NCBI GenBank assembly: GCA_963828255.1
Contig: CAWHDZ010000040.1
Span: 1-64,000, forward strand
Direction: 5' to 3'
Length of the DNA stretch: 64,000 nt
DNA from: an uncultured delta proteobacterium
Lineage (GTDB): Bacteria > Myxococcota > Myxococcia > Myxococcales > Anaeromyxobacteraceae
Positions 3,743 through 13,692 of this stretch are shown piece after piece; the stretch's first letter is position 1, and every line of letters starts with the position of its first letter. The notes under the pieces were generated by a model. That model did not search any database. It was not told where the DNA came from and saw only the letters and a program-made list of their open reading frames with translations. The translations under genes were made by a program, and so were the position numbers.

Positions 3743-3745
3743 GGA

Positions 3746-3769
3746 GGCCGGCGCCCGCTGACGCCGGCC
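3746..3769. terminator. Hairpin between convergent genes
   Basis: GGCCGGCG-N8-CGCCGGCC inverted repeat between stops at 3742 and 3780. Confidence 0.35.
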
Positions 3770-3779
3770 CCTGGCCGGG

Positions 3780-6575
3780 CTACTGCGCCGGGTTCCCGTC
3801 GGCGTCGAGGATCACCGGCGCCCCGAGCCCGAGCTCGGAGAGCCCCTTCTCGATCTTGGCCCGGTCGCCCACCACCACCCAGACCACCTCATCGGGCTGG
3901 ATGAACCTGGCGGCCGCGGCCACCTGCTCCGGCGTCAGCGCCAGCACCTTGCCGGCGTAGGCGTCGTAGTAGCCGTCGCCGAGCTGGTAGGTCACCACCT
4001 CGGAAACCGATCCGGTCACCGCGCCGTTCGTCTCCCAGCGGCCGGGCAGCGCGAGCGTGAGCGATCCCTTCGCGGAGGCAAGCTCGTCGGCGGTGACCGG
4101 ACGCGTCCCCACGATCCCGGCGAGCTCCTTCTGGATCTCCTGGACCGATTCCTTGGTCTTGTCAGCCTGGACGGCGGTGAAGACGAAGAAGAGGCGGGGG
4201 CCGCGCGCATCGGGGAGCAGGCTACTGGCGCCGTACGACCAGTGCTTGTCCTCGCGCAGGTTCATGTTGATGCGGGCGGTGAAGGCGCCGCCGAGGACGC
4301 GATTCACGACTCCCTGTGCGATCTCGTCCGGGTTGGCCCGCGGTGGCGCCGCCTGGCCCGCCAGGATGACCGACTGGGCCGATCCGGGCCGATCGACGAC
4401 GTAGAGGCGAGGCGCGGCGCGCTTGCCAGCCAGCGCCAGGTCCTTTTCGGGCGCCTTCCCGGGCGCCCACCCGGCGAAGAGCCGCTCGAGGCGGGGCAGG
4501 ATCTCCTTCATGGTGGTGTCGCCCACCACGATCAGCACCGCGTCGGAGGGGTGGAAGCGGGCCTGGTACCAGCGCTCCACGTCGGCGCGGGTCAGCGCCG
4601 TCACCGAAGCCGTCGTCCCGGAGCCGGACATCGGGCTCGCATAGGGGTGGCCGTCCCCGTAGACCAGGCGCGGCAGGACGCGGCTGGCCATGCCGTTCGG
4701 CTGGCTCCGCTCCCGCTCGATGCCGGCGAGGAGCAGCTTCCTCTGCCTGTCCAGCTCCGCCTCGGGGAACGACGGGTGCAGGACCACGTCGGCGAACAGC
4801 TCGAGGGACGGGTCGAGGTTGGTCTTGAGGGCCGAGAGCGAGACCGTGGTCGAGTCGAGCGACGAGCTGGCGGAGAGGGTGGCGCCCAGGTCGCGGAGCG
4901 CATCGGAGATCTGCAGCGAGCTCCGCGTGGCGGTGCCCTCGGTGAGCAGCGTCGAGGCCAGGCGCGCCGTCCCCGCCGCCCCCTTGGGATCGGAGGAGTA
5001 CCCGGCGTCCACCACGAGCTGGAAGTTCACCAGCGGCACCGAGGGGCGGGGGACGACCATGATGCGCAGCCCGTTGCCCAGGACCGCCTTCTCCACCTCG
5101 GGGAACTTCGGGGCGGGGGGCGTGCCGGCATCGGGAACCTTGGAGCGGTCCACGTCGACGCCCGAGACCTTGCCGTCCTTCCAGGGGGTGACCTGGAGGA
5201 CGTACACGCCGTCGGAGAGCCAGTTCCGCGCGGCAGCCTGGACCCGCGCCGGGGTGGCGCTGCGGATGCGCGCCAGCCGTTCCTCGTAGAAGTCGGGACG
5301 GCCTCCGTAGATCTCGCTCTGGGCCAGGATGTCCGACTTCCCGCCGAACCCGCCGATGCGCTCCGCGCCGCGGGTGAAGGCGGCCAGCATCTCGGTGCGC
5401 GCGCGGTCGAGCTCGACCTGGGTCGGTCCCTTCTCGAGGAAGCGGGTGAGTTCCTCGCGGGTCACCGTCTCGACTGCGAGGAGGTCGCCGCCGGGCCGCG
5501 CGGTGGCCTGGATCAGGAACTGGCTCCCGATCTCCCCGGGGTCCTGCATGGCCATGACGTCGGTGGCGATCTGGGCGTCGTACACCAGCCGCTTGTAGAG
5601 GCGGCTCGACTTGCCCGACGAGAGCACCCGGGCGGCGAGTTCCAGGTCGAGGGAGTCGGGGCTGATCCCCTCGGGCGTGTTCCACACCAGGTAGACCCGC
5701 GCCTGGGGAACACGGTCCTGCATGCTCCCGCGGTGTTCGCCGGTGCGCTTCGCGACCCAGGCCTCCTGCCGGACGAGGGGAGGGCCGGAGGGGATGTTCC
5801 CGAAGTGCTTCTCGACGCGGGCCTTGACGTCCTCGGCCTTCACGTCACCGGCCACCACGAGCACCGCGTTGGCCGCGCCGTACCAGTCCTTGAACCAGGT
5901 CTTCACGTCGTCGAGGGTGGCCGCGTCCAGGTCCTCCATCGAGCCGATGACCGTCCAGGAGTAGGGGTGTCCCTTGGGATAGGTGGCGGCCGTGAGGACC
6001 TCGTCGACCCGGCCGTAGGGCTGATTCTCCCACTGCCGCTTCTCGTTCTTGACCACGCCCCGTTGCTCGTCGAGCTTGGCCTGGGTGACCGCGCCCAGGA
6101 GGTGCCCCATGCGGTCCGACTCCATCCAGAGCACGGTGTCGAGGGCCGGGGTGGGCACGTTCTGGAAGTAGTTGGTCCGGTCAGGGTTCGTGGTGCCGTT
6201 CCGGTCCGTGGCGCCGATGCGGTCGATCACCTTGAACCAGTCGTCGTTGTAGTGCTCGCTCCCGTTGAACATCACGTGCTCGAAGAGGTGGGCGAACCCG
6301 GTCTTGCCCGGCCGCTCGTTCTTCGACCCCACGTGGTACCAGACGTTGACGGCGACGATGGGCGCCTTGTGGTCCTCGTGGACGATGAGCACGAGGCCGT
6401 TCGACAGCACGAAGCGCTGGTAGGCGATCTTCGGGGTGTCGATCCCGGGGGCCGCGGGGACGGGGGTGGACCTGGCGGCCCGGGACGGGGCGGCAGGGGT
6501 CTTGGCAGGGGTCTTGGCGGGGGCCGCCGGTGGGGCGGCGAGCACGAGGGCGGTGGCGAGGGCGACGAGTGTCAT
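3780..6575 (-). CDS. M16 family (pitrilysin/PqqL-like) zinc peptidase, exported
   Basis: Signal peptide; HLFEH inverted zinc motif in GFAHLFEHVMFNGS; two M16 halves; NLREDKHWSYG. Confidence 0.92.
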   Translation of the reverse strand: MTLVALATALVLAAPPAAPAKTPAKTPAAPSRAARSTPVPAAPGIDTPKIAYQRFVLSNGLVLIVHEDHKAPIVAVNVWYHVGSKNERPGKTGFAHLFEHVMFNGSEHYNDDWFKVIDRIGATDRNGTTNPDRTNYFQNVPTPALDTVLWMESDRMGHLLGAVTQAKLDEQRGVVKNEKRQWENQPYGRVDEVLTAATYPKGHPYSWTVIGSMEDLDAATLDDVKTWFKDWYGAANAVLVVAGDVKAEDVKARVEKHFGNIPSGPPLVRQEAWVAKRTGEHRGSMQDRVPQARVYLVWNTPEGISPDSLDLELAARVLSSGKSSRLYKRLVYDAQIATDVMAMQDPGEIGSQFLIQATARPGGDLLAVETVTREELTRFLEKGPTQVELDRARTEMLAAFTRGAERIGGFGGKSDILAQSEIYGGRPDFYEERLARIRSATPARVQAAARNWLSDGVYVLQVTPWKDGKVSGVDVDRSKVPDAGTPPAPKFPEVEKAVLGNGLRIMVVPRPSVPLVNFQLVVDAGYSSDPKGAAGTARLASTLLTEGTATRSSLQISDALRDLGATLSASSSLDSTTVSLSALKTNLDPSLELFADVVLHPSFPEAELDRQRKLLLAGIERERSQPNGMASRVLPRLVYGDGHPYASPMSGSGTTASVTALTRADVERWYQARFHPSDAVLIVVGDTTMKEILPRLERLFAGWAPGKAPEKDLALAGKRAAPRLYVVDRPGSAQSVILAGQAAPPRANPDEIAQGVVNRVLGGAFTARINMNLREDKHWSYGASSLLPDARGPRLFFVFTAVQADKTKESVQEIQKELAGIVGTRPVTADELASAKGSLTLALPGRWETNGAVTGSVSEVVTYQLGDGYYDAYAGKVLALTPEQVAAAARFIQPDEVVWVVVGDRAKIEKGLSELGLGAPVILDADGNPAQ

Positions 6576-6656
6576 GGAAGGCGTTTAGCCGATTCGCCGC
6601 TCCCATGCCAGCCTGTTCGGGGTAGACTTCCGCCCCCTTTGGACCCGAGAAGAGCC

Positions 6657-9653
6657 TTGCCCTCCGTCACCCGCATCGAGGTCGGAACCCGGCCCGAATT
6701 CACAGACAGTCTGGGGGCCTCGGTGGCCCGGAGGGTGCGCGACCACCTCGGCCTCTCCCCGCGCCGGGTCCGCACCCGCGACGTCTTCCTGGTCGAGGCC
6801 CGGCTCTCCCCGGCCGAGGCCGAGGCGGTGGCCCGCGAGTTCGCCGGCCCGGTGGTGCGCCAGGGGGCGGTGGGTCGTCTCGACGACGGACCCTTCGACG
6901 TGGCCGTCTCGGTGGGCTTCAAGCCCGGCGTGACCGACCCGGTGGCGAAGAGCGCCCGGGTGGCCATCGAGGACCTCCTGGGGCGGCCGCTGGGGGAGGG
7001 GGCGCACGTCTACACCTCGCGCCTGTACCTCCTCGACGGCGTCACCGAGGGGGAGGCCGGGCGCATCGCCCGGGCGCTGCTCGCCAACGAGGTCATCGAG
7101 CGGGTGGCGGTGCAGCCGTACGCCCGGTGGAAGGAGTCGCCTCCCGACCTCTCGGTCCCGCGGGTGGCGGAGCACGCCCCGCGCCCCGTCGAGGCGGTGA
7201 GCCTGGAGATCCCCGACGACGCGCTCCTCGCCCTCTCGCGGGAACGGCTGCTCGCCCTCTCCCTCGACGAGATGCGGACGCTCCGCGACTTCTACCGCAA
7301 GGCCGCCTCCGACCCGGCGCGCCGCGCCGCCGGCCTGGGCCCCGACCCCACCGACGTCGAGCTCGAATGCCTGGCCCAGACCTGGTCCGAGCACTGCAAG
7401 CACAAGATCATGAACGCCACCCTCTCCTACCGGGAGGAGGGGAAGGCGCCGGAGGAGATCCGCTCCATCTTCAAGACCTTCATCCGGGGCACCACCGAGG
7501 CGGTGGACGAGGCCATCCAGGAGCGCGAGGGCAAGAGCTGGCTCGTCAGCGTCTTCCACGACAACGCCGGGGTCATCGAGGCCACCGACGCCTTCCACCT
7601 CGTCTACAAGGTCGAGACCCACAACAGCCCGTCGGCCCTCGACCCGTACGGCGGCGCCATCACCGGAATCGTTGGCGTGAACCGGGATCCCTTCGGCACC
7701 GGCATGGGCTCCGACCTGCTCGCGAACACCTGGGGCTACTGCTTCGGCCCCCCGGACTGGAAGGGGGAGCTCCCGCCCGGGCTGCTCCACCCGCGCCGCA
7801 TCCGCGACGGCGTCCACGCGGGCGTCATCGACGGCGGCAACCAGTCGGGCCTCCCCTATGGCCGAGGCTGGGAGTTCTTCGACGAGCGCTTCCTGGGGAA
7901 GCCGCTCGTCTACTGCGGCACGGTGGGGCGCATGCCGGTCACCGTCGCCGGGGAGCCCGGCGAGGTGAAGCACGCCCGCCCCGGGGACCGGATCGTCATG
8001 GTGGGTGGCCGCATCGGCAAGGACGGCATCCACGGGGCCACCTTCTCCTCGGCCGAGCTGACCGAGGAGAGCCCGGTCCAGGCCGTCCAGATCGGCGACC
8101 CCATCACGCAGAAGATGATGTTCGACTTCCTGCTCGAGGCCCGCGACCTGGGGCTCTACTCGGCCATCACCGACAACGGTGCGGGCGGCCTGTCCTCGTC
8201 GGTGGGCGAGATGGCGAAGCAGCCGGGCGGGGCCAGGCTCGATCTGGCCCGCGCGCCCCTCAAGTACCAGGGGCTCGCACCCTGGGAGATCCTGGTCTCC
8301 GAGGCGCAGGAGCGCATGACGCTCGCGGTGAGGCCGGAGAAGCTCGCGGAGTTCCTCGCGCTGGCCCGGCTGCGCGAGGTCGAGGCGACCGACCTGGGCG
8401 AGTTCACCGCCGAGCCCAGCTTCCGGCTGGAGCTCGAGGGGCGCGCCGTCGGGCTCATCCCCATGGAGTTCCTCCACGAGGGCGATCCCGAGATGCGCAT
8501 CGACGCGGAGTGGAAGGAGCCGGTCCGGGCCCGCTTCGCCGCCGCACCGGCGCCATCGACCGGGGAGGGCAATGCGCTCCTGGCTGCCTTCCTCTCCCGC
8601 GACAACCTGCGCTCGGCCGAGCGGCTCGAGCGGACCTACGACCACGAGGTGAAGGGGCTCACCGTGGTGAAGCCCTGGATCGGGGCCCACCGCGACGTGC
8701 CGTCCGACGCGGCGGTCTTCCAGATCGCCCACGACGGCTCCCTCGTGGGCTACGCGCTCGCCGAGGCGGCCTTCCCCGCCTACAGCGACGAGGACGCCCA
8801 CGCCATGGCCCAGGCCGGCGTGGACCTCACCGTCCGCCGGGTGGTCGCCGCCGGGGCGCGCATCGACCGCATCGCGCTCCTCGACAACTACTGCTGGCCC
8901 GATCCGCTGCCGGGCGCGAAGAACCCCGACGCCGCCCACAAGGCGGCGCAGCTGGTCCGCGCCTCGCGCGGCCTCTCCGAGATCTGCCGGGCCTACGGCA
9001 CGCCGCTCATCTCCGGCAAGGACTCGATGAAGAACGACGCGGTGGTGGGGGGCAGGCGCATCAGCATCCCCCCCACGCTGCTGGCCTCCGCCATCGCCGT
9101 GGTCCGCGACGTGCGCCGGGCCGTGACCCTGGAGGCGGGCGCCCCGGGGCAGCTCCTCTACGCCGTCGGCGAGACCGGCGACGAGCTCGGATGCACCGAG
9201 TACGCGGCCCACCGTGGGGAGGCCGGCGGGCGGGTCCCGCGCTGCAGCCCGGAGCCGTTCCGCGTCCGGTACGAGAAGGTCGCCTCGGCCATCGAGGGCG
9301 GGCTCGTGGCGGCGGCCCACGCCCCCGGACGAGGCGGGCTGGCCCGCTCCCTCTTCCTCCTGGCCCGCGCCGCCGGGCTCGGGCTCTCGGTCGATCTCTC
9401 CCTCGCGCCCGAGGACGGGCGGCCGGGATGGGAGGCGCTCCTCTTCTCCGAGTCGGCCGGGCGCTTCCTGCTGGTCGTCGAGCCGGGGAAGGGCGCCGCG
9501 CTCGAGGCGAGGCTGGCCGGGGTTCCGCTGGCCCGGATCGGCTCCTTCGACGAGGGCGGCCGGCTGCGCATCGCGCTCTCCGACCAGGTCCTGGTGGACG
9601 AGGACGTCGCCACGCTCGCCCGCGCCTGGAAGCGGGAAGGGGTGCGGCCGTGA
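6657..9653 (+). CDS. purL: Phosphoribosylformylglycinamidine synthase subunit PurL (with PurS-like N-terminus)
   Basis: QTWSEHCKHK, KVETHNSPS, GKDGIHGATFSS, DNGAGGL, SEAQERM, ISGKDSM, LFSESAGRF; TTG start at 6657 inferred (TTG 6639 is an alternative). Confidence 0.92.
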   Translation: MPSVTRIEVGTRPEFTDSLGASVARRVRDHLGLSPRRVRTRDVFLVEARLSPAEAEAVAREFAGPVVRQGAVGRLDDGPFDVAVSVGFKPGVTDPVAKSARVAIEDLLGRPLGEGAHVYTSRLYLLDGVTEGEAGRIARALLANEVIERVAVQPYARWKESPPDLSVPRVAEHAPRPVEAVSLEIPDDALLALSRERLLALSLDEMRTLRDFYRKAASDPARRAAGLGPDPTDVELECLAQTWSEHCKHKIMNATLSYREEGKAPEEIRSIFKTFIRGTTEAVDEAIQEREGKSWLVSVFHDNAGVIEATDAFHLVYKVETHNSPSALDPYGGAITGIVGVNRDPFGTGMGSDLLANTWGYCFGPPDWKGELPPGLLHPRRIRDGVHAGVIDGGNQSGLPYGRGWEFFDERFLGKPLVYCGTVGRMPVTVAGEPGEVKHARPGDRIVMVGGRIGKDGIHGATFSSAELTEESPVQAVQIGDPITQKMMFDFLLEARDLGLYSAITDNGAGGLSSSVGEMAKQPGGARLDLARAPLKYQGLAPWEILVSEAQERMTLAVRPEKLAEFLALARLREVEATDLGEFTAEPSFRLELEGRAVGLIPMEFLHEGDPEMRIDAEWKEPVRARFAAAPAPSTGEGNALLAAFLSRDNLRSAERLERTYDHEVKGLTVVKPWIGAHRDVPSDAAVFQIAHDGSLVGYALAEAAFPAYSDEDAHAMAQAGVDLTVRRVVAAGARIDRIALLDNYCWPDPLPGAKNPDAAHKAAQLVRASRGLSEICRAYGTPLISGKDSMKNDAVVGGRRISIPPTLLASAIAVVRDVRRAVTLEAGAPGQLLYAVGETGDELGCTEYAAHRGEAGGRVPRCSPEPFRVRYEKVASAIEGGLVAAAHAPGRGGLARSLFLLARAAGLGLSVDLSLAPEDGRPGWEALLFSESAGRFLLVVEPGKGAALEARLAGVPLARIGSFDEGGRLRIALSDQVLVDEDVATLARAWKREGVRP

Positions 9654-10450
9654 AGCCGGTCCGCGTGCTCCTGCCGGTGGGCTTCGGCCTCAACTGCGAG
9701 GACGAGACGGCCCGGGCCTTCCGCATGGTCGGCGCCGAGGTGGACCTGGTCCACCTCACCGACCTCTTCGCCCGGCGCCACGGTCGGCGCATGGCCGACT
9801 ACCAGGTGCTCGCCATGGTGGGAGGCTTCTCGTACGGCGATCACGTGGCTGGTGGGCTGGTGCTCGCCACCCGCATCCGCGCCCACCTGAAGGACGACCT
9901 CACGGCCTTCCTGTCCGGGGGCGGCCGGGTGCTGGGCATCTGCAACGGCTTCCAGACCCTGACCCGGCTCGGGCTCCTGCCCGGGCCCGGGGCGGGGGCG
10001 CCGGACTTCACTCCGAGTGCAACGCTCACCAACAACGAGCGGCTCGGCTACCGGGACGCCTGGGTCCGCGTCGCGCCCGATTCCCGGAGCTCCTGCGTCT
10101 GGACCCGCGGGCTCGCCGCGGTGGACCTGCCCTCCCGCCACGGCGAGGGGCGCTTCGTGGCCGGGTCGGACGAGGCGCTGCGCAGGCTCGACGCCAGCGG
10201 CCAGCTGCCGCTCCGCTACGTGGACGCCGCGGGCAAGGTGACGGAGGGCTGGCCGGAGAATCCCAACGGCTCGGCCCTGGGCGTGGCCGGCGTGTGCGAC
10301 GCCACCGGGCGGATCCTCGGGCTCATGCCCCACCCCGACGCCTTCCTGTACCCCTGGCACCACCCTGACTGGCCCCGCCGCCGCCGAGAGATCGAGTCGC
10401 GGGAGGCGGGCGGGCTGGCCTTCTTCCGGGCGGGCGTCGAGGGCACGTAG
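9650..10450 (+). CDS. purQ: FGAM synthase glutaminase subunit PurQ
   Basis: GLNCEDET, GGFSYGD, GICNGFQ, HGEGRF, NPNGS, GLMPHPD; GTGA overlap with the purL stop. Confidence 0.92.
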   Translation: MKPVRVLLPVGFGLNCEDETARAFRMVGAEVDLVHLTDLFARRHGRRMADYQVLAMVGGFSYGDHVAGGLVLATRIRAHLKDDLTAFLSGGGRVLGICNGFQTLTRLGLLPGPGAGAPDFTPSATLTNNERLGYRDAWVRVAPDSRSSCVWTRGLAAVDLPSRHGEGRFVAGSDEALRRLDASGQLPLRYVDAAGKVTEGWPENPNGSALGVAGVCDATGRILGLMPHPDAFLYPWHHPDWPRRRREIESREAGGLAFFRAGVEGT

Positions 10451-11725
10451 ATGGCCGGGAACGGACGGCTGCTGCTCCTCGTCCCCACCCAGAGCTACCG
10501 GGCCGACGACTTCCTGGCCGCGGCCCGCCGGCTGGGCGTCCCGGTGCTGGTGGGCACCGACCGCTGCCACCGCATCGAGGAGGCCTTCGGTCCGAGCGAC
10601 GGGCTCCTCTCCATCGACTACCGGAAGCCGGAGGAGGCGGCCGACGAGATCGCCCGCGAGGCCGCGCGCCTGCCCATCGCCGGGATCGTTCCGGCCGACG
10701 ACGGGACGGCGGTGATCGCGGCGCTGGCCGCCGAGCGTCTCGGGCTGCCGCGAAACTCCCCGGCGGCGGCGAGGCGGACGGTGAACAAGCTCGCCCAGCG
10801 GGAGGCGCTTCTGGCGGCCGGCCTGCCGGTGCCCTGGTTCCGCGCCTTCCCGGTGGCCGACGGCCCCGCAGGCCCGGCGGCCACGGTCCGGTACCCCTGC
10901 GTGCTGAAGCCGCTCGGCCTGTCGGGGAGCCGCGGCGTCATCCGGGCCGACGACCCGGAGTCCTTCTGCGAGGCCTGGCGCCGCGTCGTGGACATCCTCG
11001 CGGCGGCCCGGAGCGACCGGAAGGCGCGGGAGCATGGAGAAGGGAGCCGGATCCTGGTGGAGGCCTTCGTGCCCGGCGCCGAGGTGGCGCTGGAGGGGCT
11101 CCTGCGCGGCGGGCGGCTGGAGCTGCTGGCCCTCTTCGACAAGCCCGACCCCCTCGACGGCCCGTTCTTCGAGGAGACGATCTACGTCACGCCGTCGCGC
11201 CACCCCCCGGAGGTCCAGGCGGCTGTCTTGCTGGCCATCACCGCGGCGGCGGAGGCGCTGGGGCTCCGGGAGGGGCCGGTCCACGCCGAGGCCCGGCTCG
11301 GGCCGGACGGCCCGGTGATCCTGGAGGTGGCGGCACGGACCATCGGCGGTCTCTGCGCCCGGGCCCTGCGCTTCGGGGCCGGGGCCTCGCTCGAGGAGAT
11401 CGTGGTGGCCCACGCCGTGGGGCTGCCGCTCTCGTCGATCCGCCGGGAGGCCCAGGCCTCGGGCGTGATGATGCTCCCCATCCCCCGGCGCGGGATCCTC
11501 CACGGGGTCGCAGGCCTCGACGCGGCGCGCGCGGTGCCCGGCGTGGACGACGTCGTGATCACGGTTCCGGAGGGGCGGGAGGTGGTTCCGCTGCCGGAGG
11601 GGGACGCCTACCTGGGCTTCCTCTTCGCGCGCGGGGAGTCGCCCGACCGGGTGGAGGAGGCGCTCCGGGAGGCCCACCGAAGGCTCTCCTTCGACATCCG
11701 GACGCCGTTGCCGACCGTGCGATGA
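10451..11725 (+). CDS. ATP-grasp domain protein (ligase of unknown substrate)
   Basis: YPCVLKPLGLSGSRGVIRAD, LVEAFVPGAEVALEG, HAEARL, ILEVAARTIGG; ATG directly follows the purQ TAG. Confidence 0.85.
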   Translation: MAGNGRLLLLVPTQSYRADDFLAAARRLGVPVLVGTDRCHRIEEAFGPSDGLLSIDYRKPEEAADEIAREAARLPIAGIVPADDGTAVIAALAAERLGLPRNSPAAARRTVNKLAQREALLAAGLPVPWFRAFPVADGPAGPAATVRYPCVLKPLGLSGSRGVIRADDPESFCEAWRRVVDILAAARSDRKAREHGEGSRILVEAFVPGAEVALEGLLRGGRLELLALFDKPDPLDGPFFEETIYVTPSRHPPEVQAAVLLAITAAAEALGLREGPVHAEARLGPDGPVILEVAARTIGGLCARALRFGAGASLEEIVVAHAVGLPLSSIRREAQASGVMMLPIPRRGILHGVAGLDAARAVPGVDDVVITVPEGREVVPLPEGDAYLGFLFARGESPDRVEEALREAHRRLSFDIRTPLPTVR

Positions 11726-11741: not shown

Positions 11742-13157
11742 TCAGTCCCGGTCGGGCGGGGCAACCTGCCCCGCGGTGGGCTCCGCTCAACAGAACCAGT
11801 TCTCGGTGAGGCGCGGCGATCCGGCGGTCGAGAAGGGGCGGGCGACGTGGGAGTGGGCCCGTCCCGCAGCGGCGAGCGCCATCGCCTTCACCTCGGCCAT
11901 GGTCGAGGCAGGGTCGTCCCCACGCGTCGCCGCCGCGCCCACCAGCGCCGCCACCCGGGACTGGAGCAGGTCCATCCGCGGGTCGGGATGCTTCCATCGC
12001 CAGGTGAGACCGGCGGTGTCGATCCCATCGAGCGCCAGCTCCGGGTCGCCGACCAGCAGGGAGCCTGGTGGCACGAGGAGGCGCAGGGAGAACTGCACCG
12101 GGTCGATCCGCCCGAGCCACCCCTGCTCCTCGAAGGTCTCGAGCAGGTCGAGGTAGCCCGCCAGGGTTTCCCAGGGAGTGAAGGGGACCAGCGTGGGGCG
12201 CAGGGGGAGGGCGGCCTCGTCGCAGGCCGCGAAGGCGCGGAAGACGTCCTCCCGGACGTGACCCTTCTCGAGCTTCCCGAGCACGCGATCCGAGAGGGAC
12301 TCCACGGCGGAGACCACGAAGATGGCCCCGCAGGCCGCGAGCTCGGGCAGGAGGCCGGCGTGCCGGACCAGGTGCTCCACCTTGGCCGTGAAGTCGAAGG
12401 TGACCGCGGGGAAGCGCCGGTGGAGCTCCCGCGCGACCCGCAGCGCGTGCCCCGGTCCGTTCAGGAAGTCCGGGTCGCCGAAGGTGACATGGGTGACGCC
12501 GGCCGAGACCTGGTTGCCCACGTCGGAAAGGACCGTCTCCGGCGGGATCGCGAAGAAGCGGCCCCCGTAGACGGCGGGGATGGGGCAGTGGCGGCAACGG
12601 TGCAGGCAGCCGCGGGTGGCCTCGGCGTAGCCGGCGGGGCGCTCACGCCCGTCGGCCTCCCGGAGCCGGGCGTAGCGCTCCGGAGGGGGCAGTCCGTTGC
12701 GACGGGGGACGGGGAAGTCGAGCCTCCCGAGCGTCGCCTCGCCCCCGCCCCGCTGGACGAATCGGGAGAGGTCCTGGCATTGCTCGGCCGCCAGGGCCAG
12801 GGAGACCAGCTCCTCCTCGCACTCGCCGCCCAGGATGGCCGAGGCGCCCGCCTCGAGGAGCAGGGGCGCGTGGAGCGGCGCGTACGTTCCGTGAAAGGCG
12901 ACGATCGCAGCCGGGTTCACGCCCTTGGCCCGTGCCGCGGCGTCGAGGCCGAGCCGCAGGGCGGTGTGCATGGGGACGGAGATGGCGATGAGGCGTGCAG
13001 CCCGCACGCGCACCTCGTCGAAGGGCTCGACGGCGAGGTCCATTGACGCGGGGTGGAACCCGGCGCGGGCCAGGAAGGCCGCGGGCGACGCGATGCCCTG
13101 CGGCTGGTGCCCCAGCTCGTAGGTGGAGACGAGGAGGACCTCTCCCTCGCCCCGCAC
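11742..13157 (-). CDS. B12-binding-domain radical SAM selenoprotein with CUAEP tail (471 aa; Sec at TGA 11789-11787)
   Basis: EATRGCLHRCRHCP (CxxxCxxC); B12-binding-like N-terminus; the frame continues WFC-TGA-AEPTAGQVAPPDRD-stop; SECIS-like hairpin 12 nt after the TGA. Confidence 0.88.
11756..11774 (-). promoter_or_regulatory. Bacterial SECIS element (selenocysteine insertion hairpin)
   Basis: mRNA UGA-GCGGAGCCCACC-GCGGGGCA-GGU-UGCCCCGC: perfect 8-bp stem with a G-containing apical loop resembling the GCAGGU core of the E. coli fdhF SECIS. Confidence 0.8.
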
Positions 13158-13160
13158 CGG

Positions 13161-13439
13161 CTATCCCTTCTTGGGAGGCGGGACGAAATCTGGCGGGAGC
13201 TGGGCTCCCTCGCCGAAGAAGAACTGCTCCGCCTGCTCGAAGAGGATCTTGTTGGTCTTCGGGTCGCCCGGGGCCAGCCGGTACTCGTTCAGGATCATCT
13301 TGAAGTGCTCGAGCCACATCTTCCAGGCCTCCTGGGAGATGGAGTCGAAGATGCGCTGGCCGAGCTCGTTGGGGAACGGCTTCACGGCCATGCCCGGCAG
13401 CTCCCTGCCGAGCTTCTTGCAATGGACCATCCGAGACAT
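13161..13439 (-). CDS. yggX: Fe(II)-trafficking / oxidative damage protection protein YggX
   Basis: [13 protein letters not shown]...[35 protein letters not shown]. Confidence 0.9.
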
Positions 13440-13458: not shown

Positions 13459-13692
13459 TCAGGAGATGAGCGAGGCGGGCGTGACGCCGAGCGCCTTGCT
13501 GAGGGACTCGAGGGTGTCGAGCGGAGGCGTGCGCTGCCCGCGCTCCAGCATCGAGATGTACGAAACGGACAGCCCGGCCTTCTTGGCGAGCGTCTCCTGG
13601 GAGAGCTTGCGGCGGAGCCGCTCGGACTTGAGGTGCGTGGCGAACTTCTCGGAGAGGGAGGCGGTGCGGCTCTTCTTGGTGGTCTTGGCCAT
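13459..13692 (-). CDS. XRE-family helix-turn-helix transcriptional regulator
   Basis: [41 protein letters not shown]. Confidence 0.9.

Follow-up and report, generated by a model that had tools for sequence, protein, structure and literature searches.

A putative selenoprotein of the CUAEP-tail radical SAM family, its kinship with ArsL and its likely partner ligase

RESULTS

Gene content of the locus

The window analysed here is a stretch of 64,000 nt of contig CAWHDZ010000040.1 from an uncultured member of the Anaeromyxobacteraceae (assembly GCA_963828255.1; 99.2% complete, 6.6% contamination). A radical SAM ORF on the minus strand starts with a GTG at 13157 and extends for 456 codons, with LTENWFC as its last residues, to an in-frame TGA (11789-11787). 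The frame then continues for 14 codons (AEPTAGQVAPPDRD) up to a second TGA (11744-11742); WFC precedes the first TGA and AEP plus 11 more codons follow it, in agreement with the initial annotation, which had reported a frame open past the TGA for AEP and 14 codons in all. When read through, the gene (11742-13157, minus strand) is predicted to encode a CUAEP-tail radical SAM selenoprotein of 471 aa, matching NF040546, with selenocysteine (Sec) at position 457. This protein has a cluster motif (C184-x3-C188-x2-C191), a Rossmann-type N-terminal domain and a C456-U457-A-E-P tail, i.e. both the CxxxCxxC motif and the C-[U/C]-A-E-P tail that define the family. Close relatives of the gene are from uncultured Anaeromyxobacteraceae (93% identity) and close homologs are present in Anaeromyxobacter isolates.

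Upstream, a gene for a 92-aa YggX Fe(II)-trafficking/oxidative-damage protein (13161-13439, minus strand) ends 3 nt short of the start of the radical SAM gene. A small gene for an XRE-type helix-turn-helix protein (13459-13692, minus strand) is located between moeA and yggX; the sequence cluster to which it belongs was observed in 41 of 80 loci, essentially Anaeromyxobacter-like ones, and its product may be a regulator of the unit formed by yggX and the radical SAM gene. Convergent with the radical SAM gene is a plus-strand gene (10451-11725) encoding an ATP-grasp protein of the L-amino-acid-ligase type (424 aa) with an invariant cysteine, Cys302. Positions 3743-10450 of the window contain purL/purQ-like genes, which lead directly into the ligase gene, and a minus-strand gene for an M16 peptidase; as purQ is adjacent in only 7/80 loci, it was regarded as a local neighbour. 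A promoter scan of the region detected no site, and the sole terminator-like site in the scan, inside yggX and at chance level, was discarded. Contigs from four RNA libraries overlap parts of the region, with one run spanning all 30 of its bins with sequence of relatives; contigs as such cannot show transcription.

Comparative evidence for read-through of the in-frame TGA

The codon at the TGA position was compared across the best 80 of 464 related loci, of which 70 have TGA, five have a cysteine codon (TGC/TGT) and five end before the tail. Past the TGA, [A/S]EP continues in 68 of the 70 and the other two reach a contig end. All 24 over-cut-off matches in a sample of 201 Myxococcota genomes, which overlap in part with the 80 loci, contain one TGA. 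Among 29 Chloroflexota genomes with the enzyme, nine have the TGA version and 19 the Cys version, while one copy is cut off. The alignment of homolog C-termini and the search for Sec genes that had been proposed as checks on read-through both gave positive results, namely Cys at the TGA position with [A/S]EP conserved beyond it, and selA, selB, selC and selD all over cut-off. In the host genome, selA, selB and selD exceeded their profile cut-offs and tRNA-Sec (selC) scored 78.3 bits with a TCA anticodon. A second 'tRNA-SeC' predicted by ARAGORN on contig C30 was discounted, being absent from the 14 Rfam matches.

A predicted bacterial SECIS hairpin, GCGGGGCA-GGU-UGCCCCGC (11774-11756, minus strand), begins 12 nt downstream of the TGA and has a covarying 7-bp core with a G-containing 5-nt loop. 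Folding energy was rejected as proof of a SECIS element as the value for a 61-nt stretch (z = -0.58) is uninformative at 71% GC. Synonymous recoding of the tail produced 7/7 pairs in the same register in 181 of 5000 cases, but the hairpin is rare in its position: only 101 of 70,117 TGA triplets genome-wide have 7/7 pairs there, 37 of these 101 with the loop G. In 115 distinct tails, at least 6/7 pairs were found in 63/91 TGA tails as compared to 2/24 Cys tails, and a register shift of 1-2 nt reduced the stem count to 0-15 of the 91 TGA tails. Several stem pairs in these 115 tails switch among G-C, C-G, A-U and U-A, i.e. compensatory change, and the loop G is present in 88/91 TGA tails versus 15/24 Cys tails. 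What is conserved is a stem of 7 bp, closed by a C-G pair, and a 5-nt loop, AG(U/G)UN. The hairpin had initially been described as 8 bp long; its position and its pairing in this gene are as described but the conserved stem is 7 bp, the eighth pair (A-U) occurring in only 14/91 TGA tails. The comparative evidence, and not fold energy, is decisive for the prediction of a SECIS element. The host selD gene (G000 C3:30344-31270) also has an in-frame TGA and is of the selenoprotein form, with a similar hairpin bearing a CAGGU loop ~30 nt downstream.

A true stop at this TGA, with the protein ending at WFC, is highly improbable: database entries do end at WFC and the hairpin by itself is of ordinary stability, but homologs have Cys codons at the same place, [A/S]EP is conserved downstream of the TGA, hairpin and TGA go together, selA/B/C/D are in the genome and selA occurs in 9/9 Chloroflexota genomes that carry the TGA version. 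The UGA of the radical SAM gene almost certainly encodes Sec, generating a vicinal Cys-Sec pair. The initial annotation had drawn the same conclusion and is upheld by the Cys-aligned homologs, the TGA-specific hairpin and the selA/B/C/D genes; it had also anticipated truncation by gene callers, and 8/10 members of the database cluster are indeed 456 aa in length. A selenium link beyond the codon was considered and rejected as selA, present in 17/19 Chloroflexota genomes with the Cys version, is not clearly enriched over a background that is already 114/151. An extra Cys occurs in the tail of 6/22 Cys versions versus 2/86; this difference, although suggestive, is driven by related genomes and was set aside.

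Family membership and kinship with ArsL

Scores against NF040546 (cut-off 500) were 613 bits for the truncated protein and 627 bits when read through one TGA, bearing out the original assignment to the CUAEP/CCAEP-tail family. NF040546 is a named, already curated family, to which the gene adds a further member rather than defining a new type. The preprint describing the family (Haft and Gwadz, bioRxiv 10.1101/2022.07.06.499078) gives it, in the available part, as uncharacterized and connects the CU motif with the binding of heavy metals.

Apart from that of its own family, the NCBIfam model with the highest score was ArsL, NF040542 (258 bits, E 1.5e-76), with the next model at 40 bits. The protein is not itself an ArsL by the criteria of that model, as 258 bits is below the cut-off of 450 and the tail is WFCUAEP, not RCCLKC. 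Identity to an ArsL-family protein was 31% over 408 aa. When 1.84 billion representatives were searched without a profile, the best 150 matches included family members with WFC/WFCC tails and two ArsL-type proteins. Phylogeny was examined with a maximum-likelihood tree built by a quick method from 92 proteins, with six B12-type radical SAM proteins as outgroups. In this tree the CUAEP family and ArsL each had an SH-aLRT support of 99 and were together separated from the six outgroups with a support of 100; branches to the outgroups are long, and one empty outgroup row was dropped. Both families have A284-x-E286 in place of the GxE of the outgroups and F326-[T/N]-P-W where 6/6 outgroups have a G at 326, positions which we take to be SAM-binding motifs. 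H223 and D255-x-T257 are also common to both. On these sequence comparisons, the CUAEP family is placed as sister to ArsL. One database protein, P0144, combines an ArsL-like body with an FCCAEP tail and branches beside ArsL (support of 90, long branch); judged by its sequence, it may link the two families.

A single-sequence search yielded no solved-structure relative of the radical SAM protein, and neither sequence nor fold searches yielded an ArsL structure. The AlphaFold model is of high confidence (pLDDT 94.5, pTM 0.93), with block means in the tail of 81-87 over residues 431-460 that then fall. The top fold match was AprD4 (TM 0.69, 18% identity), followed by TsrM, and OxsB, TokK and CysS were also matched.

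Co-occurrence with an ATP-grasp ligase

All three domains of the convergent ligase (ATPgrasp_N, ATP-grasp_4 and LAL_C2) scored over cut-off, and the ligase profile matched PDB 3VOT (BL00235) with an E-value of 2.4e-68. Cys is present at position 302 in 71/71 aligned copies; Sec at this position was rejected, a motif scan having identified 82 TGC/TGT codons and no TGA, and a TGA in the ligase match of genome G233 is its normal stop.

The distribution of both genes was determined in 473 genomes sampled from three phyla, in which the ligase was found in 67/70 genomes with the CUAEP enzyme. In Myxococcota (201 genomes), both genes occur in the same 24. Chloroflexota (151 genomes) comprise 27 with both, two with the enzyme only, eight with the ligase only and 114 with neither, and the corresponding numbers for Acidobacteriota (121 genomes) are 16, one, five and 99. 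These tallies include two unpublished genomes (G196, with neither gene, and G379, with the ligase only) and three sample centres that were known beforehand to hold the enzyme; the phylum counts overstate independence as the genomes within each sample are kin. The ligase is present in 49/80 flanking regions, in both orientations, many flanks being short. It occurs without the enzyme in 13/80 ligase genomes, often beside Nfu, and no enzyme match was detected even at E 1e-8 in the five of five ligase-only genomes tested, indicating that the ligase may have work of its own. In the genomes of 12 loci (L192-L199, L212, L217, L224 and L228, with L212 from an unpublished genome), a Cys-bearing ligase is present, mostly adjoining NfuA, but the radical SAM family gave no match. 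Two acidobacterial ligase matches (L217 and L220) have one in-frame TAG each. Five long database proteins (P0124, P0168, P0169, P0170 and P0171) were rejected as evidence of ligase-radical SAM fusion: the P0168 join includes an AMP-binding domain, and in P0169-P0171 parts are missing or the frame is not kept. Being single-contig singletons where inspected, with P0169-P0171 defective, they count as adjacency at most. The ligase is likely to be a functional partner of the CUAEP enzyme.

Iron-sulphur and arsenic genes in the neighbourhood

YggX lies next to the enzyme in 23/24 Myxococcota genomes with the enzyme. Neighbour counts, obtained with a custom ORF caller that may miss genes, were 45/80 loci for YggX and 22/80 for Nfu/IscA, i.e. 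one of them in 67/80 and never both; a second set had 17/40 and 13/40 regions, respectively (30/40 with one, never both). Rarer neighbours were DUF169 (6/80), SUF (5/80) and CDGSH (5/80). A formyltransferase paralog of Chloroflexota is present in 13/40 regions, all beside YggX; it was rejected as part of the host locus, the host genome having only weak matches (E 3e-16 or worse). In four Chloroflexota loci (L179, L181, L182 and L184) the module adjoins lipB, lipA and 2-oxoacid dehydrogenase-like genes, so NfuA in those genomes may also serve lipoyl synthase. YggX is likely to be an accessory for the Fe-S cluster of the CUAEP enzyme. No YggX-radical SAM module was found in the literature searched, which included the available part of PMC13149037 and covers subscription journals thinly.

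A search for arsR, arsC, acr3, arsD, arsA, arsH, arsN, arsQ and aquaporin genes gave 0/105 CUAEP loci (1.13 Mb), with an ArsB-like transporter in 3/105 and a weak methyltransferase match in 1/105, whereas ars genes are present in 5/5 ArsL plasmid loci examined. The host genome has no match to arsN or arsQ at E 1e-8 and weak ArsM-like matches only, and its acr3-arsC pair is on another contig than the CUAEP gene. As dedicated ars genes are lacking and the neighbours relate to Fe-S clusters, the context points to iron-sulfur upkeep, not arsenic resistance; ancestry, as read from sequence, points to ArsL chemistry.

The chemistry of ArsL is described in two preprints (Yao preprint; Serrano preprint), a 2026 review and the arsQML paper. 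ArsL cleaves SAM to methylthioadenosine and an aminocarboxypropyl (ACP) species; according to the two preprints, no other radical SAM enzyme with CxxxCxxC is known to release an ACP radical. Three C-terminal cysteines bind arsenic and the tail is needed for product. Methylated arsenic is also accepted (2026 review). Among 36 listed ArsL plasmid loci, five were examined and four (L127, L134, L136 and L137) contain an ATP-grasp gene; all four also carry a gene for a GTP-binding protein. Arsinothricin-type peptides may exist; no report linking arsinothricin to an ATP-grasp or a dipeptide was found in a literature search with thin coverage of subscription journals. The one ArsL-linked ATP-grasp that was aligned has only 19% identity to the CUAEP-partner ligase and none of three checked has the equivalent of Cys302, so the two pairings may be independent.

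DISCUSSION

A proposed function and its alternatives

The reading we favour, with a probability of about 0.5, is by analogy an ArsL-type transfer of ACP onto an atom held by the Cys-Sec pair, followed by ligation by the ATP-grasp enzyme. The [4Fe-4S] cluster would cleave the C-gamma-S bond of SAM, producing methylthioadenosine and an Fe-ACP species. The Cys-Sec pair would bind a two-coordinate acceptor and present it to this species. Trivalent arsenic is the only precedent for such an acceptor and methylarsenite would suit a two-ligand arm; within this ACP model we put arsenic at somewhat short of an even chance, with sulfur, selenium or another metalloid making up the remainder. The ligase would then form an amide bond to give a dipeptide, and invariant Cys302 may take the thiol-bound product. 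YggX, or Nfu in other lineages, would restore the cluster, which is prone to oxidation, in the way that Dph3 serves Dph1-Dph2. No cobalamin would be required. Because a single ligase travels along with a sister of ArsL, the product is likely a modified amino acid or dipeptide. A metal(loid)-binding role for the Cys-Sec arm, which the initial annotation had raised, is plausible by analogy with ArsL. Counting against an ArsL-type model, the CUAEP tail has two ligands and that of ArsL three; against arsenic as the acceptor, dedicated ars genes are missing from the loci. The shared motifs, as sequence features, do not prove which S-C bond of SAM is cleaved. The module looks like housekeeping, being present in 16/17 genomes of its own family, and not like a patchy antibiotic cluster.

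It is possible, although unlikely, that the module maintains or modifies an Fe-S protein and has the ligase plus YggX or Nfu as its core, the radical SAM enzyme performing a Dph2-like ACP transfer to a protein residue or serving cluster repair and its Cys-Sec arm being a redox relay instead of a substrate carrier. Such a role would fit the recurrence of only Fe-related neighbours (besides the ligase, DUF169 and the formyltransferase paralog), the persistence of the ligase beside Nfu where the radical SAM gene lies elsewhere or was not detected, and the lack of a recurrent exporter or self-resistance gene. It is harder to reconcile with YggX being far wider than the module (90 versus 24 of 201 Myxococcota genomes), as expected of an accessory, with the joining of free amino acids by the solved ligase relatives BL00235 and BacD, and with the binding of substrate by the matching tail of ArsL.

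Slightly more doubtful is ordinary 5'-deoxyadenosyl chemistry, either an ArsS-like adenosyl addition to a metalloid or an AprD4-like hydrogen abstraction, with the Cys-Sec arm binding substrate or returning a hydrogen or electron. Almost all CxxxCxxC enzymes use such chemistry, according to the available text of the Serrano preprint, and the top fold match, AprD4, is a diol dehydratase; the SAM-binding motifs, however, group with ArsL and not with the outgroups, and a partner that ligates amino acids suits an amino acid derived from ACP more than it does a nucleoside.

The initial annotation had labelled the protein a B12/radical SAM enzyme and suggested that the arm might shuttle a methyl group. 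A cobalamin-dependent class B methyltransferase, in which the Cys-Sec arm carries a methyl or a methylated metal, is improbable. HgcA, which uses cobalamin chemistry, provides a precedent for pairing such chemistry with a CU motif. The CU motif of HgcA is noted in the available part of the family description (Haft and Gwadz, bioRxiv 10.1101/2022.07.06.499078). Residues 8-118 have a match to Pfam B12-binding (E 1.9e-6) and the fold matches include TsrM, OxsB, TokK and CysS, but the Pfam score of 28.1 bits is below the cut-off of 32.1, the first motif of the N-terminal domain lacks a His with conservation of at least 85%, and named B12 methylase models reach at most 40 bits against cut-offs of 251-650. 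The same N-terminal region is found in ArsL, which is not a methylase. One database protein (P0014) joins the CUAEP family to a MerB-like domain; this join is a singleton, and neither the host genome nor any of 193 loci gave a match. Neither the B12 label nor the methyl shuttle is supported; the closest characterised relative, ArsL, was reconstituted with SAM, reductant and As(III) in reactions for which the accessible sections name no cobalamin (Yao preprint; Serrano preprint).

Significance

The read-through itself is catalogued and ordinary; it is the ArsL kinship and the partner ligase, neither of which features in the initial annotation, that make the function testable. A Sec-containing sister family of ArsL, present in 70/473 sampled genomes with one ligase, is a place to look for a second case of ACP-radical chemistry and a new metabolite. 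We regard as tentative, and on balance doubtful, the wider proposal that CUAEP enzymes form a second, far wider ACP-radical class that uses Sec, makes a C-As or C-Se/S bond and produces a housekeeping dipeptide with a Cys-ligase and an iron donor. If true, a CUAEP dipeptide would be made in Myxococcota, Chloroflexota, Acidobacteriota and other soil/sediment phyla, and ArsL would be the specialised antibiotic-making sister of the class.

Comparison with known systems

The protein resembles NF040546 members over its full length, exceeding the cut-off and having the CU-AEP tail, and as a protein does not differ from them; the Haft and Gwadz account, in its available part, mentions neither the module with ligase and YggX/Nfu nor the sister relationship to ArsL. 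The ligase shares the ATPgrasp_N/ATP-grasp_4/LAL_C2 layout of BL00235 (PDB 3VOT) and BacD but differs in that an invariant Cys closely follows its conserved R-x-x-G-G loop; it scores far below the BacD and DdaF cut-offs. For diphthamide, the available part of PMC8251694 describes Dph3, a small iron protein, as restoring the cluster of the ACP enzyme Dph1-Dph2. The likeness lies in ACP-radical chemistry and in an iron protein that restores the cluster, for which YggX would be the counterpart; Dph1-Dph2, in contrast, has an unrelated fold without CxxxCxxC and acts on a protein histidine. Compared with ArsL of arsinothricin biosynthesis (NF040542), the CUAEP enzyme is longer by ~45 residues ahead of the tail, has two ligands (CU, with Sec) instead of three Cys, and occurs in a YggX/Nfu context with no ars operon, arsM, arsQ or arsN nearby. 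The two nevertheless share a domain layout at ~31-34% identity, the altered SAM-binding motifs, a vicinal C-terminal chalcogen pair and, often, a nearby ATP-grasp gene.
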